From Dehalococcoidia bacterium (GTDB taxonomy: Bacteria > Chloroflexota > Dehalococcoidia > DSTF01 > WHTK01): a stretch of DNA of 64,000 nucleotides. Positions 48,973-55,958 of the stretch are shown here, in pieces. The stretch's first letter is position 1. Every line of letters starts with the position of its first letter. Both the position numbers and the translations under genes were made by a program. The notes under the pieces are model-generated. The model was not told the DNA's origin. It made no database searches and saw nothing but the letters and a program-made list of their open reading frames with translations. The DNA lies in assembly GCA_035574915.1 (NCBI GenBank), contig DATLYJ010000078.1, positions 6,460 through 70,459 on the forward strand. Reading direction: 5' to 3'.

Positions 48973-49614
48973 ATGCCGGTAGTGGAGATCACATGGCTTG
49001 GACAGAACTGTTTCCGCCTGCGTGGGCGGGAGGCGGTCGCGCTGACGGACCCGTGCCCGCCGTCGACCGGTTTCAAGATCGGCAAGGTCGGCGCCGATGT
49101 CGTGACCATTAGTCACGACGGCGCCGAGTCCAACTACAGACAAGCAGTCCAGGGCGAGGCCAAGTTCGTCTCAGCCCCCGGCGAATACGAGATCGCCAGC
49201 ATCCTGATTACAGGCGTACGCACCCGCCGAGATAAGAAGGACGGCCAGGTACGGAACGTCGCCTTCGTCCTCGATATCGATGACATCCGCGTCTGTCACC
49301 TCGGGCTGGTCAGCCAGGTCCCACACGCCGACGATGTCGAACAGTTGGTCGGCTGCGATGTCCTCCTTGTTCCGGTGGGCGGCGGCGGCGCCCTCAACGC
49401 CCGCGCCGCCGCCGAAGCCGTAAGCCTGCTGGAGCCAAAGATCGTCATCCCCATGCGCTTCAAGACGGCGGGCGCCACCGGTGACCTGGAAGGAGTCGAC
49501 CGTTTCCTGAAGGAGATCGGCGCCGAATCCAGGGCGCCGGAAGCGCGCCTCAACGTCACAAAGAGCAGCCTCCCTGCAGACACCACTGTCGTGGTCCTGG
49601 AGCCTCGCGGCTAA
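48973..49614 (+). CDS. MBL-fold metallo-hydrolase (UPF0173-like)
   Basis: MPVVEITWLGQNCFRL...ISHDGAE... beta-lactamase-fold pattern. Confidence 0.65.
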   Translation: MPVVEITWLGQNCFRLRGREAVALTDPCPPSTGFKIGKVGADVVTISHDGAESNYRQAVQGEAKFVSAPGEYEIASILITGVRTRRDKKDGQVRNVAFVLDIDDIRVCHLGLVSQVPHADDVEQLVGCDVLLVPVGGGGALNARAAAEAVSLLEPKIVIPMRFKTAGATGDLEGVDRFLKEIGAESRAPEARLNVTKSSLPADTTVVVLEPRG

Positions 49615-49763
49615 GTACCACGTCATCGCCGCGCCGAGGATCCTCCCTGGAGTTGCGCCTGCGACCACCCATGCCGGGCATGACACTGGCTGCCCCTAAG
49701 GCAGCCTTCCTCCACGCCTCCGGCACCGGACTCCCGACGCCGGACATGTGGAACCGGGTAACT

Positions 49764-50053
49764 AGTTATTGACAACGCATTACGGTCGCCCTAGGCTTGA
49801 TACCTGAACTCAATAGCGCACGGCGTCGAAGGGTAGTAGTAGGGGATCGCCTCGGGCGATCAGCGAGCCGGGACGGTGGAAGCCGGCAGCCTTAGCGCCC
49901 CGAACTCGACCCGGAGCCCACCGGCTGAATCCGAGTAGGCCAGTGCGGGTAAGCCCGATACAGCGAACGAGGTGCCCTTTCGACAATCACGAAGGGGAAC
50001 CAGGGTGGTACCGTCCCGTCTCCCCGGGGTCCCTGGAGAGGCGGTTTTCTTTT
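49764..50053 (+). ncRNA. candidate T-box riboswitch leader (possible Leu CUC specifier) with promoter and intrinsic terminator, upstream of ilvB
   Basis: Promoter TTGACA-N17-TAGGCT at 49764. T-box consensus AGGGTGGTACCG at 50002..50013. Terminator hairpin plus TTTTCTTTT at about 50014..50053. Candidate specifier GAA-CUC-G at 49903..49905. Confidence 0.5.
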
Positions 50054-50342
50054 GATGCGGCCCGTTGGGCAAACTTAACGAGAGGCAACGTCAGGCAAGT
50101 GACGACGATGAGCCGAAACGCAGCGCTGGAGGCCGATAAGGTCTCGGTCGATGCTATGCAGCTTCGCCGAGACCGGGCGGTAATCGCTCGCGTGGTCGGC
50201 TCGGGCGCGGCCGGACCCAGGTCGCGGCTACTGAGCCTCCTCCTTACTTAGCCCCGTCCCCCGAAGCCCATCGGGGACCGCAACGGGGCGCACCTCAGAA
50301 TCTCAGTCAGTCGAAATCGGCTGTCCGTCCTAAGGAGGACGT

Positions 50343-52064
50343 ATGAAGCTCACTGGCGCGCAAATAGTCATGGAATGCCTCCAGCGCGAGGGCGTGGAGG
50401 TCGTCTTCGGCTATCCGGGCGGGGCCAACCTGCCCATGTACGACACCCTCAAGGACTATCCCAACATCCGCCACGTCCTCGTCCGGCACGAGCAGGCAGC
50501 GGCCCACGCCGCTGACGCTTACGCTCGCGTCACGGGCAAGGCCGGAGTCGCCTGGGCGACCTCAGGCCCCGGCGCCACGAACCTGGTGACCGGGATCGCT
50601 AACGCCTGGATGGACTCGGTGCCCCTGGTCTGCATTACCGGCTCCGTCGTCACCTGGCTCATCGGCCGGGACGGCTTCCAGGAGGCCGACATCACAGGGA
50701 TCACCATCCCCATCACCAAGCACAACACTCTCGTCCTCAATGTGGAGGACATCGCCCCGGCGATCCGTGAGGCCTTCTATATCGCCACGACAGGCCGCCC
50801 CGGTCCGGTGCTCGTCGACATCCCGCGCGACATCCAGCAACAGGTGTGCGAGTTCATCTACCCGGAGACGGTGGAATTGCGCGGCTACCAGCCCGTGACG
50901 AAGGGTAACGCCCGCCAGGTGAAGCGCGCTGCCCAGCTCATCGCGGAGGCGCAGCGGCCGCTGATCCTGGCCGGCCACGGCGTCAACATCGCCCGCGCCC
51001 ACGAAGAGCTGCGCGAGTTCGCCGAAAAGACGCAGATACCGGTGATCACCACTCTTCTCGGGCTCGGCGGCTTCCCCGGGACGCACGAGCTCTTCATGGG
51101 CATGCCGGGCATGCACGGCATGTACTGGAACAACATCGCCATCGGCGAAGCAGACCTCATTATCGGCATCGGCATGCGCTTCGACGACCGGGTCACGGGC
51201 AAGCTCACCGAGTTCGCACCGAACGCGAAGATCATCCACGTGGACATCGACCCGGCCGAGATCGGCAAGAACGTCCCCACCGCCGTGCCCATCGTCGGCG
51301 ACGTAAAGGAGGTGCTGGGCCAGCTCAACCGTGAGGTCTCCCCCGCCCGCCACGACGAGTGGATCGGTTGGTTCCGCCGCATGCAGAAGGAGCACCCTTC
51401 GATCCTGATCCCGGAGGTCGACAAGCTCCTCCCCCAGTACGTGATCAAGTCCATCTACGACGCATCCGGGGCCGACGCCTACTACGTCACCGGCGTGGGA
51501 CAACACCAGATGTGGGCGGCGCAGTACTTCTGGGTGGACAAGCCCAACGGCTTCATCACCTCCGGCGGGCTCGGGACCATGGGCTTCGAGGTGCCCGCGG
51601 CCATGGGCGTTCAGTTCGCCGCGCCGAAGGAGACTGTGTGGTCGATCTGCGGCGATGGCGGGTTCCAGATGACCTCTCAGGAGCTCGCGACAATCGTCGA
51701 GTACGAACTGCCGGTGAAGTTCGCGATCATCAACAACGGCTACCTGGGAATGGTGCGTCAGTGGCAGGAGATGTTCTACAAGAACAACCTCTCCGCGGTG
51801 CGCATGTACCAGCCGGACTTCGTCAAGCTGGCGGAGGCTTACGGCATGACGGCACTGCGAGTGACTGACAAAGCGCAGGTCCGGGGCGCCATCGACGCGG
51901 CGCTCAACCACCCCGGCCCGGTGCTGATCGACTTCCAGGTCGAAGAGTACGAAAACACCTACCCGATGGTGCCGCCGGCGACCGCGCTCAAGGACACGGT
52001 GGATTCACCCTACACCTACGAGGACATCCGGCCGCGAGAGCGCGAGCGGGCGGGCTCGCGATAG
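50343..52064 (+). CDS. ilvB: acetolactate synthase large subunit (biosynthetic)
   Basis: 573 aa with ThDP motif GDGGFQM...NN and an AHAS-typical N-terminus. Confidence 0.92.
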   Translation: MKLTGAQIVMECLQREGVEVVFGYPGGANLPMYDTLKDYPNIRHVLVRHEQAAAHAADAYARVTGKAGVAWATSGPGATNLVTGIANAWMDSVPLVCITGSVVTWLIGRDGFQEADITGITIPITKHNTLVLNVEDIAPAIREAFYIATTGRPGPVLVDIPRDIQQQVCEFIYPETVELRGYQPVTKGNARQVKRAAQLIAEAQRPLILAGHGVNIARAHEELREFAEKTQIPVITTLLGLGGFPGTHELFMGMPGMHGMYWNNIAIGEADLIIGIGMRFDDRVTGKLTEFAPNAKIIHVDIDPAEIGKNVPTAVPIVGDVKEVLGQLNREVSPARHDEWIGWFRRMQKEHPSILIPEVDKLLPQYVIKSIYDASGADAYYVTGVGQHQMWAAQYFWVDKPNGFITSGGLGTMGFEVPAAMGVQFAAPKETVWSICGDGGFQMTSQELATIVEYELPVKFAIINNGYLGMVRQWQEMFYKNNLSAVRMYQPDFVKLAEAYGMTALRVTDKAQVRGAIDAALNHPGPVLIDFQVEEYENTYPMVPPATALKDTVDSPYTYEDIRPRERERAGSR

Positions 52065-52088: not shown

Positions 52089-52679
52089 ATGCCGAAGTCT
52101 GAACACCACACAATCGTCGCCCTCGTCGAGGACAAGCCGGGCGTCCTGAACCGCATCGCCTCCAAGTGGCGGCAGCGCGGCTTCAACATCGAGTCCCTGG
52201 CCGTGGGCCATTCCGAGACCCCGGGGCTGTCGCGCATGACCTTCACCGTCGACGGCGCCCGCCACGACATCGAGCAGGTCACGAAGCAGCTCTACAAGGT
52301 GATCGAGGTCGTGAAAATCGCCGACATCACCTCAGAGGACATCGTCGCCCGTGAGTTGGCGCTGATCAAGGTCGCCGCCGGCCCGCAAAACCGCGGCGAG
52401 ATTATCGAGATCGCCACCCTGTTCCGGGCCAACATCGTCGATGTGTCGGCCGACTCGTTGATCGTCGAGGTGACCGGCACCGAGGACAAGATCGAGAAGA
52501 TCTGCGAGCTGCTGCAGCCGTACGGCATCAGAGAGCTCGTGCGCACGGGCCGGGTGGCCATGGGCCGCGGCGGCGGCTCCAGCGTCAGCGTCAACGGTTC
52601 CGGCCGCCTCTCCGCCGGCACGCACGGCCGCTATCGCAGCGCCGGCGAGGGCAAACCTCAGGTAGGGAGCCTGCTCTAG
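52089..52679 (+). CDS. ilvN: acetolactate synthase small (regulatory) subunit
   Basis: ACT domain HTIVALVEDKPGVLNRIASKWRQRGFNIESLAVG plus a C-terminal domain. Confidence 0.9.
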   Translation: MPKSEHHTIVALVEDKPGVLNRIASKWRQRGFNIESLAVGHSETPGLSRMTFTVDGARHDIEQVTKQLYKVIEVVKIADITSEDIVARELALIKVAAGPQNRGEIIEIATLFRANIVDVSADSLIVEVTGTEDKIEKICELLQPYGIRELVRTGRVAMGRGGGSSVSVNGSGRLSAGTHGRYRSAGEGKPQVGSLL

Positions 52680-52681
52680 CC

Positions 52682-53485
52682 GTGAGCGGTCAGGCGAACG
52701 TCGAGCCGAGGGTATACCGGGCAGGCCTGGCCCTCCGTGAGGGAAGCGTCGAGGCCGTTGTGTTCGACCTGCCGGGGTGTCAATGCGTGGCTTCGGACCG
52801 GGAGGAAGCGCTCAACTTGCTGCCCGTGGTCATTGCCGAGCACCTGGCCTGGCTAGACCAGCACGGTGACGTCACGCGCGACGCCTTCCCCTTTCAGCTC
52901 GACGTGGTGGAGGAGGTCGAAGTCGACGCGCTCACCGACATCGCCGACGGCGAGTTCTGCTTCGACGATGACAGGCGACCCACCACGCGCGAGGAGGTCG
53001 AGACGGCCCTGCGGCACATGTCCTACGCCCGCGCTGACCTCCTGGCCGCGGTACGCCACCTGCCCGATCTGGTGCTGGACTGGGTACCACCGACCGGCGC
53101 GGTCGAGGTGGACAGGTGGGCGCCGGCTGTGCGGAGCGTGCGCGGTATCCTCGACCACATCGCCGGCGCGGACGGGTACTACGTCCGGAACGTTGGCTCC
53201 GCGCCCTGGGCCGGGCCTGCAGGCCCGCAGCCCGGCGGCCTCTTCGAGATGAGAGAGCGCGTCGTCCAGCGGTTGCGCACGCTGAGCGAAGCAGACCTTG
53301 CTGCCGAGTACAGGAAGCGGCAGCCGTGGCAGGCTGCGGGCTTCGAGCACTGGACAGCGCGAAAGGCGCTGCGCCGGATCATCTCGCACGAGCGCTTCCA
53401 CACCAGGGAGATCGAACAGCGACTGGCCTGGTTGCTGATCGGTGCGCCGAAGCTTGCCCGGGTCGCCACCGGGAGCAGGGCATGA
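52682..53485 (+). CDS. hypothetical fusion protein: HicB-like N-terminal domain + DinB/YfiT-like (DUF664) C-terminal domain
   Basis: N-terminus VYRAGLALREGSVEAVVFDLPGCQCVASDREEALNLLPVVIAEHLAWL (HicB-like fold). C-terminus has His-rich DinB_2-like motifs (ILDHIAG...HERFHTREIEQ). GTG start 2 nt after the ilvN stop. Confidence 0.45.
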   Translation: MSGQANVEPRVYRAGLALREGSVEAVVFDLPGCQCVASDREEALNLLPVVIAEHLAWLDQHGDVTRDAFPFQLDVVEEVEVDALTDIADGEFCFDDDRRPTTREEVETALRHMSYARADLLAAVRHLPDLVLDWVPPTGAVEVDRWAPAVRSVRGILDHIAGADGYYVRNVGSAPWAGPAGPQPGGLFEMRERVVQRLRTLSEADLAAEYRKRQPWQAAGFEHWTARKALRRIISHERFHTREIEQRLAWLLIGAPKLARVATGSRA

Positions 53486-53600: not shown

Positions 53601-55148
53601 ATGGACAAGGTATTGATTTTCGACACATCGCTGCGCGACGGCGAGCAGTCGCCGGGCGTGGCGTTCAACGTGCGCGACAAGCTCGAGATCGCGCAGCAGC
53701 TCGAGCGCCTGGGGGTGGACATCATTGAGGCCGGCTTCCCCGCCAGTTCGCCCGGCGATATGGAAGCCGTGAAGGAAGTCGCGAAGGTCATCAAGACCTC
53801 GCGGCTGGCGGGGTTGGCCCGCGCGGTCAAGAACGACGTAGACGCCTGCTGGGAAGCCATCAAGGACGCGAAGTACCCGCGTATCCACGTCTTCCTCTCG
53901 TCGTCGGACATCCACTTGATGCACCAGCTCGTGAAGGACCGCGAGACCGTGCTCGAGATGGCCCGCACGATGGTGGCCAGGGCGAAAGGCTACACCGAGG
54001 ACGTGGAGTTTAGCCCCATGGACTCGACGCGCTCGGAGCGAGAGTACGTCTACCGGATGCTGGAGCAGTGCATCGATGCCGGCGCGACGACCGTGAACAT
54101 ACCCGATACTGTCGGCTACACGACGCCGGAGGAGTTCAAGGAGTTCATCGAGGGCATCCTGGCCAACGTGAAGAACATCCACCGGGCGACGATTTCGGTG
54201 CACTGCCACAACGACCTTGGCCTCGCGGTCGCGAACAGCCTCGCGGCGGTAAAAGCCGGCGCCCGCCAGGTCGAGACCTGCATGAACGGCATCGGCGAGC
54301 GCGCGGGAAACGCCGCCCTCGAGGAAGTCGTGATGGCTATCAAGACGCGCGCCGACTTCTTCAACGTCGAAACCAACGTCAATACACGCGAGCTGTACCG
54401 GACTTCGCGCCTGGTGTCAGACCTGACAGGGATGGTGGTGCAGCCAAACAAGGCCATCGTGGGCGCGAATGCTTTCCGGCACCAGTCCGGTATCCATCAG
54501 GACGGAATCCTGAAGATGCGCGAGACTTACGAGATCATGGATGCGCGGGAGATCGGCTGGCCGACCGGCGGCGGCGAGATCGTTCTGGGGAAGCTATCGG
54601 GCCGCCACGGCTTCAAGGCCCGCCTGGACGAGCTCGGCTATGAGCTGACGTCGGACGAGTTCGAGCGCGCCTTCGCCGCTTTCAAGGAGCTAGCCGACAA
54701 GAAGGCCGAGATCGATGACCGCGACATCGAAGCCATCGTAGGCGAGGAGCGGCGCGAAGAGGACAACGTCTTCAGGCTCGACCTGCTGCAGGTGAGCTGC
54801 GGAACCCAATTGGTTCCCACCGCCACCGTACGCCTGGCGACGCCTGACGGCAGGACGCTGGTCCAGACCGCAACCGGCACCGGGCCTGTAGACGCTACCT
54901 ATCGGGCGATTAACGCGCTCGCCGGGGTAGAGAACGAGCTCACGGAGTTCTCCGTCAAGAGCGTCACCGAAGGCATCGATGCTAACGGCGAGGTCTTCGT
55001 GCGCATCGAACGAGACGGCCGCTCGTACACGGGCCGGGGCGTGGACACGGACATCATCGTGGCGGCGGCCAAGGCAGTATTGCAGGCGATCAACCGCCTC
55101 CTTTACGTGCACGGACGCCAGGACTCCCAGGTAAGGACCAACCCCTGA
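53601..55148 (+). CDS. leuA: 2-isopropylmalate synthase
   Basis: [16 protein letters not shown]...[17 protein letters not shown]...; 515 aa (short LeuA form). Confidence 0.92.
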
Positions 55149-55258
55149 TGAAAGGCCGGAAGCCACGCCGAAGGACACCTGAGTACTTGCCAAGCGTTGC
55201 GGCTGATAGTAAAGTAGCTGAGGCCGCAGTAAAGTATGAGGTGGAGGAGGGACCGGCA

Positions 55259-55546
55259 GTGAGCACGATAAGCAGCAAAAACCAGATAACCCTGCCGGCG
55301 CACCTCCTGCGGGAGATGGGCCTGGGCCCGGGGGACCGCCTGGCCGTAGGCCGGGAGGGTAACCGCCTGGTCCTGCGGCCGCGTCCGCGGGACTGGGTCA
55401 GGCATTACGCCGGCAGCCTGAGCGGGCTGTATGGCGCCACCCGGCAGGAGGCGGATGCCTACATCAAGGGCCTGCGGACAGAAGACGCGCGCGCGGCGGA
55501 GATCGAGAGGGCCTGGGCTGGTAGGGAAGGAAGCGCTCGAGAATAG
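55259..55546 (+). CDS. AbrB/MazE/SpoVT-fold antitoxin (VapB-like)
   Basis: SpoVT/AbrB swapped-hairpin motif KNQITLPAHLLREMGLGPGDRLAV...GNRLVLRP. GTG start 9 nt after GGAGGAGGG. The tracker's upstream ATG 55148 lacks an RBS and overlaps the leuA stop. Confidence 0.6.
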   Translation: MSTISSKNQITLPAHLLREMGLGPGDRLAVGREGNRLVLRPRPRDWVRHYAGSLSGLYGATRQEADAYIKGLRTEDARAAEIERAWAGREGSARE

Positions 55547-55958
55547 CCGGCGCTTCTGCCTCGATACGAGCGCCGTCATCTACTACCTCCAGGGCATGCA
55601 GCCCTATCTGCGCGTCCTCCTGCCTCTCCTCGACCGCGTCCGGGATGACGAGGCCATCATGGTCCTCTCGGCGATCACCGAGGCGGAGCTGCTCGTCAAA
55701 CCGGAGCGGGACGGCAACCGCGAAGCGGTCGAGATGATCGAGGACTTCCTGTCCGAGGACGGGATTTACGTGGTAGAGATGAGCCGCAGCATTGCCCGGC
55801 GGGCGGCTCGCCTCCGCCCCGTGAACAGGATCAGCATTGCGGATGCCGTTATCATGGCCACAGCCATCGAAACTGGTTGCGACTTGCTGCTCGGCAACGA
55901 CACCGCCTGGACGAAGGTCGGCGGCCTGCCGTTCGTCCGTCTGGAAGACCTGAGGTAA
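55455..55958 (+). CDS. PIN-domain ribonuclease (VapC-like toxin)
   Basis: PIN acidic residues (FCLDTSAVIYYL...ITEAEL...ISIADAVIMATAIETGCDLLLGND). The true start is unclear: no ATG/GTG/TTG within 10 codons of the LDTS motif; 55455 would overlap the antitoxin by about 90 nt. Confidence 0.55.
   Translation: MPTSRACGQKTRARRRSRGPGLVGKEALENSRRFCLDTSAVIYYLQGMQPYLRVLLPLLDRVRDDEAIMVLSAITEAELLVKPERDGNREAVEMIEDFLSEDGIYVVEMSRSIARRAARLRPVNRISIADAVIMATAIETGCDLLLGNDTAWTKVGGLPFVRLEDLR

Follow-up and report, generated by a model that had tools for sequence, protein, structure and literature searches.

Why should a single operon sense leucine twice? The question is raised by the leader of an ilvB-ilvN-leuA gene cluster in a 64,000-nucleotide (nt) stretch of DNA from a Dehalococcoidia bacterium (contig DATLYJ010000078.1, positions 6,460 to 70,459; hereafter the window, in whose own numbering all coordinates are given). 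T-box riboswitches and leader peptides are textbook alternatives for reading aminoacyl-tRNA supply, and a large, mostly uncultured clade of soil and sediment Dehalococcoidia keeps both on one operon. We propose that the leader is a composite in which two leucine sensors are arranged in series, a T-box that controls transcription and a leader peptide that probably controls translation, and we give this reading a probability of roughly 60%. Possible reasons for sensing the same amino acid twice include separate gates for transcription and translation, the reading of uncharged versus charged transfer RNA (tRNA), and a steeper response. The promoter, the individual leader features described below and ilvB all lie on the plus strand.

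The element at 49817-50037 is, judging from its sequence and its relatives, very likely a leucine T-box riboswitch. When cmscan is run in E-value mode, the T-box family RF00230 matches this segment over the full length of the model (positions 1-219 of 219) with 72.3 bits, corresponding to E = 1.3e-15 in a local search and 1.1e-13 in a search of the whole window. This is the sole RNA family match across the 64 kb, and it covers Stem I with its K-turn, the Stem II region, Stem III and the antiterminator. One observation counts against the assignment: a default Rfam scan of the window returns nothing, because the T-box score lies under the RF00230 gathering score of 93 bits. The window contains no tRNA gene, and tRNA-Leu(GAG) is a predicted partner. 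We take the sub-threshold score to reflect a GC-rich, divergent lineage (the GC content of the match is 0.67) and not non-membership. T-boxes have already been documented in Chloroflexi (PMC2494555, PMC3766115), and a practical lesson is that the Rfam gathering score misses T-boxes in GC-rich members of this phylum.

Comparative evidence carries the T-box assignment. Homologues were found at 64 of 80 related loci by single-sequence and profile searches, and the Rfam structure was projected onto an alignment of 34 T-box homologues from Dehalococcoidia, a class of Chloroflexota (alignment A2). Across A2 the T-box fold is paired in 90.4% of cells, compared with 33-57% in slid controls, and 29 of the 46 pairs have changed on both sides, a result that none of 500 shuffles equalled. 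The Stem I helices are 75-100% paired, with many pairs changed on both sides. Within Stem I, the AG bulge AGCGA (49862-49866) aligns to AGAGA of the model and the distal loop GGUG (around 49875-49878) to GGUG, both being conserved in A2; these are the Stem I motifs, AGVGA and GNUG, that dock the tRNA elbow (PMC5794164). The minimum free energy (MFE) fold of the whole leader was uninformative (z = -0.30), and the architecture was not recovered from the single sequence of this GC-rich RNA.

The specifier codon is CUC (Leu) at 49905-49907, preceded by GAA (49902-49904), followed by the purine G (49908) and placed in the specifier loop by the cmscan alignment. GAACUCG is unchanged in 31 of the 34 homologues, the exceptions being GUC (L003) and CAACUCA (L024 and L036). 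The ilv-leu T-box of Bacillus subtilis likewise uses CUC as its Leu specifier. In L003 (314-539) the specifier position reads GAA-GUC-G, which is valine and not leucine, in a T-box that is otherwise very similar and is accompanied by the same Leu-tailed open reading frame (ORF).

At the 3′ end of the element, the T-box motif AACCAGGGTGGTACCG can be read directly from the sequence at 49998-50013, and the cmscan structure places the antiterminator at 50002-50034, including AGGGUGGUACCG (50002-50013) with its UGGU bulge (50006-50009). Antiterminator helices 10 and 11 are 96-97% paired, helix 11 having four pairs with changes on both sides, and the GGUGG of the T-box sequence is invariant in 33 of 34 homologues. 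The UGGN bulge pairs with the NCCA 3′ end of the tRNA, so that UGGU predicts an A discriminator, fitting bacterial tRNA-Leu. UGGC replaces UGGU in five homologues (L074, L076, L080, L055 and L045; A2 columns 303-306), all of which still have the CUC specifier; such a bulge predicts a G discriminator, unusual for tRNA-Leu. The intrinsic terminator (50016-50053) consists of a hairpin at 50016-50044 (7 base pairs (bp), a mismatch and 5 bp; -19.6 kcal/mol) and the U-run TTTTCTTTT at 50045-50053. A simple consensus scanner did not accept this terminator, whose stem is interrupted (0 matches). We nevertheless accept it because its pairs are conserved across the homologues, being kept in 83% of cells compared with 46-69% when the 3′ pairing partners are slid by 1-3 columns, and a U-rich tail follows in every homologue in A2. 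Since both use 50016-50034, the antiterminator and the terminator are mutually exclusive.

Transcription of this RNA can be assigned to a promoter at 49769-49797, also read from the sequence, with a -35 hexamer TTGACA (49769-49774), a 17-nt spacer and a -10 hexamer TAGGCT (49792-49797) that ends 19 nt before T-box model position 1. The consensus scanner rejected it as well (0 matches), the -10 hexamer agreeing with TATAAT at three of six positions. We accept the promoter because it is conserved at related loci: of 61 homologous loci, 60 carry TTGACN-N17/18-TAnnnT no more than 90 nt ahead of the T-box, compared with 1.1% of background windows.

Much of this had been anticipated by the initial annotation, which worked from the letters of the window. 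Its promoter, its T-box consensus match and its terminator competing with an antiterminator are all present where described above, and the alternative pairing that it proposed to check does exist, both structures forming at the expense of the same nucleotides. Its GAA-CUC-G specifier followed by a purine proved genuine and falls in the specifier loop, at coordinates that differ by 1-2 nt from those it gave. The cmscan search that it suggested yields the full-length match reported here, which is significant by E-value; its companion suggestion, that the lack of a significant match should tell against a T-box, would at default settings have wrongly failed this element. The central claim, a tRNA-Leu-sensing T-box in control of the ilv-leu cluster, is supported by the specifier, the fold and the downstream genes, but it is incomplete, as a second leucine-related module was missed.

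Taken alone, a leucine T-box upstream of ilv-leu genes adds an unremarkable new example to a well-known family. Its classic representative is that of the B. subtilis ilv-leu operon (PMC5794164, PMC12452182), with which the window shares an ilvB...leuA... operon, a Stem I with a specifier loop, the UGGN bulge and the competition between an antiterminator and an intrinsic terminator. The window differs in belonging to Chloroflexota (Dehalococcoidia), in being GC-rich and in scoring below the gathering threshold. It also differs in layout: in B. subtilis the T-box terminator is close to the gene, whereas in the window it ends 290 nt before ilvB, the first gene, and the second module lies between. 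In nearly all relatives, 230-410 nt separate the T-box terminator from ilvB, and finding such a terminator hundreds of nucleotides away from its gene may serve in practice as a cue for a second element.

The spacer of the window holds a leader ORF of 47 codons at 50108-50251, encoding MSRNAALEADKVSVDAMQLRRDRAVIARVVGSGAAGPRSRLLSLLLT (ending in RLLSLLLT) and closed by a UAG stop at 50249-50251. On sequence grounds we consider it probable that this ORF is translated and related to leucine. The case for translation rests on conservation of the frame. In codon-blind MAFFT alignments, which make the test independent of the choice of frame, 47 of 51 distinct indels within the ORF are multiples of three, compared with 33 of 133 outside it (Fisher P = 1.6e-17); the same holds for the close group (13/13 in the ORF against 11/40 in the non-ORF parts of the same spacers) and for the divergent group (34/38 against 22/93). 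In 45 of 46 related leaders an in-frame ATG is found 40-70 codons ahead of a stop, which lies 82-119 nt upstream of ilvB. The last 12 codons are 42.6% leucine, a share that falls to 10.3% over the remaining codons of the ORF and to 6.4% and 8.0% when the same 36 nt are read in the two other frames, and every leader has a Leu-rich tail, such as LLALLLS, LLPLLLT or GLLLLVLGILLR. Across the loci the Leu codons are CUC (36%), CUG (32%), CUU (18%) and CUA (8%), a synonymous mix, so that what is enriched is the amino acid and not a single nucleotide string. Outside the Leu tail and the residues encoded by RNA stems the peptide is poorly conserved (for example L005 versus L006), and it has no match among the NCBIfam leader-peptide families.

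Part of this comparison draws on a pattern scan of metagenomes. It matched 120 stretches, only 13 of which are complete leaders with a T-box match and ilvB (most of the others have neither), and it contributed 12 unique complete leaders. One metagenomic member of the window clade, L124, has no stop after the Leu run (CTC-CTC-CTC-GCC...), and its frame continues into the ilvB ribosome binding site; this may be a natural variant or an assembly error.

The two modules can also be found apart. At six loci where ilvD precedes ilvB, the T-box stands directly upstream of ilvD and there is no small ORF. At seven loci without a T-box, as judged by profile search and Rfam, a Leu-tailed ORF is retained and ends 92-140 nt before ilvB. 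In all six of these seven that were examined, the ORF begins about 25-35 nt behind a TTGACA-N17-TAnnnT promoter, and in four of the six a clear Shine-Dalgarno sequence (SD), for example GGAGaagctATG, precedes its ATG. The T-box-less leaders L011, L021, L028 and L032, upstream of ilvB, encode a peptide of about 30 residues (for example MKAAIINRSASAQTLGLLGVGLLLLVLVLR) without the hairpin P2 described below, and their UGA stop precedes two strong hairpins, behind the second of which lies a stretch that is A/U-rich but is not a U-run. Where both modules are present, an internal promoter for the ORF was ruled out: none of 44 tandem leaders has the promoter pattern between the T-box terminator and the ORF, so in these leaders the ORF is reached only by T-box read-through.

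The ORF is embedded in a conserved RNA structure. We applied RNAalifold and pair counting to an alignment of 23 second-module elements from the window clade (A3), in which the structure is paired in 94.4% of cells, compared with 35-57% when slid. Hairpin P2 lies inside the ORF (50140-50175), where GGUCUCGG (50140-50147) pairs with CCGAGACC (50168-50175) around a loop whose length varies among relatives. It is kept in all 23 sequences (99.5% paired), and its distal pairs covary (for example A3 columns 77:100 as CG, UA, GU and UG). The P2 nucleotides encode recurring VS and RDR residues, such that the recurring peptide residues E-A/V-x-x-V-S and RDRAV correspond to the two arms of the hairpin. 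Helix A (50198-50237) joins GGCUCGG (50198-50204) to CUGAGCC (50231-50237), a 3′ strand that lies in the Leu-rich tail and adjoins the Leu run. It shows the strongest covariation in the element, with four of six pairs changed on both sides (A3 columns 132-137 with 194-199; pair 136:195 is CG in 8, GC in 6, UA in 5 and AU in 1). The register of helix A in the window was read by eye, as MAFFT misplaces this helix around a 3-nt insertion. A hairpin at 50251-50289 begins at the last base of the UAG stop, with an outer stem at 50251-50257/50283-50289 and an inner stem at 50259-50264/50271-50276; a strong hairpin starts 1-3 nt after the ORF stop in every subclade, and the equivalent helix in A3, P5, is 90.7% paired. 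Hairpin P6 (50308-50323), in which CAGUCG pairs with CGGCUG, is present in the window MFE; it corresponds to A3 columns 280-285 with 303-308, is 93.5% paired and has three of six pairs changed on both sides. Compensatory changes occur in both P5 and P6. No Rfam family matches the second-module region. An SD-like GGAGG(CC) at 50128-50134, at about codons 7-9 of the ORF, is invariant in every subclade, with no conserved start codon after it.

How, then, could the second module act? Classical transcription attenuation was considered and ruled out. It pairs a translated ORF carrying a run of regulatory codons with a downstream intrinsic terminator, and in these leaders the translated ORF with its Leu codon run is found and the terminator is not: in 45 leaders, drawn from all subclades, the post-stop hairpin has no U-run behind it, the longest stretch of U being 1-3 nt, whereas the T-boxes of the same leaders use canonical U-run terminators. 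In L062 a U-run of 5 nt does occur, inside the loop of the post-stop hairpin. Because no U-run follows the ORF, the second module is not a classical transcription attenuator, and the second step would act either on translation initiation or on Rho.

A possible link to translation initiation lies in the Leu run itself. This run, CUC-CUC-CUU with the following A, occupies 50237-50246 (codons 50237-50245, A 50246), and its UCCUCCUUA (50238-50246) is presumably identical to the 3′ tail of 16S ribosomal RNA. The ilvB ribosome binding site (50326-50345) comprises a hairpin, CGUCCU-AAGG-AGGACG (50326-50341), the SD AAGGAGGA (50332-50339) and the ATG (50343-50345). A candidate helix B would pair UCCUCCUUA at 50238-50246 with UAAGGAGGA at 50331-50339, that is, the Leu run with the ilvB SD. 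Among the 23 window-clade leaders, CUC-CUC-CUU-A is nearly invariant at synonymous positions in peptides that otherwise drift, so a constraint beyond coding is needed, for which RNA pairing and dependence on one isoacceptor are candidates. The 7-bp core of helix B, UCCUCCU:AGGAGGA, is available in all 23 leaders (98.8% of cells paired). Helix B appears in the MFE fold of 11 of 13 relatives, and in 10 of 13 the Leu run is the best partner of the ilvB SD. The SD hairpin of the window, with 6 bp, is stronger than that of most relatives (CGUCC-CUAAGGA-GGACG) and competes with the pairing of the Leu run and the SD.

From these elements we propose the following sequence of events, in which the first step draws on sequence, homology and covariation, with its mechanism taken from the T-box family. 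(i) Transcription would start a few nucleotides after the -10 hexamer and yield the T-box RNA. Uncharged tRNA-Leu would pair its anticodon with the CUC specifier and its NCCA 3′ end with the UGGU bulge, stabilising the antiterminator and blocking the terminator, whereas charged tRNA would be unable to stabilise the antiterminator and transcription would stop at the U-run. (ii) The read-through RNA would carry the leader ORF, whose translation is supported by frame conservation, and ribosomes would slow or stall on its L-L-S-L-L-L tail when Leu-tRNA is scarce; the regulatory role of this stalling is our inference. (iii) In the weakest step, the 5′ half of the tail would be held in helix A and CUC-CUC-CUU-A may base-pair with the SD of ilvB. 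With a ribosome halted at the Leu codons, these strands would stay unpaired and the SD accessible, so that ilvB could be translated; once a ribosome had reached the UAG and departed, the inhibitory fold could form. The second module would then act on translation initiation by an ermC-type logic, or possibly on Rho. That a stalled ribosome unmasks the ilvB SD is a tentative suggestion, which we hold to be somewhat less probable than not. More tentative still is the specific version in which the Leu codons are an anti-SD mimic (CCUCCUUA), the T-box gating transcription and the leader peptide gating translation of the same transcript by uncovering the SD.

Were this version true, the leader would represent an amino-acid-sensing translational attenuator in which a ribosome starved of Leu-tRNA physically exposes the ilvB ribosome binding site. 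In the window clade, a single isoacceptor, tRNA-Leu(GAG), would read the CUC specifier as well as the invariant CUC, CUC and CUU codons, so that the response to this one tRNA species would have two steps and be steeper.

Several observations weigh against the composite reading, and in particular against its third step. The ATG of the window ORF is preceded by no more than a weak SD-like sequence. Covariation is absent from helix B, both of its strands being invariant and each having an independent reason for conservation. In the window MFE the SD is held in its local hairpin (50326-50341) and not on the Leu run. When the Leu run is masked, the probability that the GGA of the SD is unpaired increases only modestly, from 0.62-0.70 to 0.85-1.0, with the three final SD bases remaining paired. 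Over 44 leaders, the duplex energy of the tail with its own SD (-18.7 kcal/mol) does not stand out from that with a foreign SD (-19.1) or that of a control ORF segment (-20.0), with a permutation P of 0.78. In the divergent subclades, the sequence that best complements the ilvB SD is often found around ORF codons 5-8 and not in the tail; this complement is GCUUCUCC, directly 5′ of the invariant GGAGG(CC) in the ORF. In an analogous actinobacterial system, the Streptomyces leuA leader, mutations of the Leu codons reportedly did not behave as classical attenuation predicts (PMC1262725). A base stem between tail and SD conserved across all subclades was dropped as a candidate, the matched-versus-mismatched duplex test over the 44 leaders being negative.

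The alternative that survives best keeps the T-box and the leucine-sensing ORF and lets the ORF act on transcription through Rho, in the manner of tnaC. A ribosome that has finished the ORF would leave, Rho would load on the C-rich, G-poor end of the ORF and terminate transcription before or within ilvB, and a stalled ribosome would cover the loading site. This would account for a leader peptide with no intrinsic terminator after it, a situation for which Rho was also invoked by Seliverstov et al. (PMC1262725). Base composition is consistent with it: in 23 of 23 window-clade leaders the 60-nt window with the greatest excess of C over G (about 28 C against 12 G) starts 56-0 nt upstream of the start of the Leu run, and the C/G ratio is 4.1 from the Leu run to the stop and 1.5 from the stop to the SD, compared with 0.96 in the ORF body, a modest bias. 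The C-rich stretch is, however, short, and in the predicted structures most of it is taken up by pairing in P5, P6 and helix A, while the RNA that Rho favours is unstructured; nor does this model explain why the Leu run and the SD should be exactly complementary. We therefore regard Rho-dependent attenuation as unlikely, behind a composite leader whose peptide acts on translation.

A further alternative assigns sensing to the RNA fold: the T-box would be followed by a structured RNA that binds a protein or a ligand, with an ORF that is translated but is not itself a leucine sensor. The conserved and covarying helices P2, A, P5 and P6 would suit such an element, as would the invariance of GGAGGCC and CCGAGACC and the fact that the encoded amino acids change only together with the stem; a protein regulator was also favoured by the authors who described the actinobacterial LEU element (PMC1262725). 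Against this, the 30-codon leaders that lack a T-box also lack P2 and the whole 5′ domain yet keep the Leu-rich tail, so that the common denominator is the Leu codons and not the RNA fold. The leucine enrichment is, moreover, limited to one frame and uses mixed synonymous codons, and the absence of any Rfam match to the region lends no support to a known structured element. Such an RNA therefore appears quite improbable to us. Least probable is a T-box acting as the sole regulator in front of a non-regulatory 290-nt spacer, its ORF being an incidental frame or a small protein gene: about one-third of frames would be open over 50 codons by chance at this GC content (calculated from base composition), the window ORF has a weak SD and the 30-residue versions of the peptide resemble a hydrophobic helix, but the indel phase test, the conserved ATG position and stop-to-ilvB distance, the absence of the ORF precisely where ilvB is not the first gene, and a peptide that matches no protein family and is unconserved beyond its Leu tail and stem-encoded residues, which argues against a functional protein, all speak against it.

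The proposed composite leader can be set beside several known systems. By description, the closest relative of its second module is the actinobacterial LEU element, predicted in 2005, in which an upstream ORF carries Leu codons and a base stem joins the Leu run to the leuA SD (Seliverstov et al., PMC1262725). Both have an upstream ORF with a Leu run and no obvious terminator. The LEU element precedes leuA in Actinobacteria, has a pseudoknot and lacks a T-box, whereas the window module is found in Chloroflexota upstream of ilvB, with a T-box directly upstream, and the window-type ORF is longer (46-57 codons), with a hairpin-rich 5′ domain. Among ilv operons, Leu-rich attenuator peptides that do have terminators have been described, as in Staphylococcus aureus ilvD (PMC5794164). 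Together with E. coli leuL and ivbL, the S. aureus peptide resembles that of the window in coming from a short translated ORF that precedes branched-chain amino acid genes, is enriched in codons for the amino acid under control and overlaps RNA structure; these peptides are followed by a poly-U intrinsic terminator, whereas the window type has none in any subclade. Translational attenuation of ermC and cat offers an analogy to our proposal, in that a stalled ribosome in a leader ORF prevents an SD-sequestering structure, but those leaders sense antibiotic-bound ribosomes through nascent-peptide arrest and not the supply of an amino acid. Tandem sensors, either two T-boxes or a T-box and a guanidine riboswitch, occur in ilv/leu leaders of Bacillota (PMC12452182); these share with the window the arrangement of two cis-regulatory sensors in series, but a T-box with a leader peptide is not among the Bacillota cases. 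T-boxes and leader peptides are known as alternatives that lineages swap for each other (PMC2965389). The literature searched, which was incomplete, contained no account of a leader in which a leader peptide comes after a T-box; this is absence of evidence only. The combination of a leucine T-box, a translated Leu-tailed ORF in a conserved RNA structure and ilvB appears to be a previously undescribed composite. It provides suitable material for studying how a leader peptide without an intrinsic terminator could sense an amino acid, a question that dates back to the prediction of the LEU element.

A second T-box in tandem within the window's spacer was ruled out, as cmscan finds only one in 49600-50400. 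At two ilvD loci, L076 (2125-2191) and L080 (2126-2192), the first T-box is followed, about 20 nt on, by another match, limited to the 3′ third of the profile (positions 174-233), which could be a duplicated antiterminator/terminator unit.

Downstream of the T-box, the gene order is ilvB-ilvN-(DinB)-leuA-(toxin-antitoxin pair)-leuC-leuD. IlvB (50343-52064) was identified by its TPP_enzyme_N, _M and _C domains, and the relatives that share 65-84% identity with it belong to metagenome-assembled genomes of Dehalococcoidia/Chloroflexota. The ilvN gene (52089-52679) follows directly, and leuA (53601-55148) comes after an unrelated gene of the DinB_2 family (52682-53485) that splits it from ilvN. 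The genes ilvC and leuB are absent from the ilv-leu cluster of the window. A pair encoding a MazE-like antitoxin and a PIN-domain (VapC-like) toxin (55148-55958) separates leuA from leuC.

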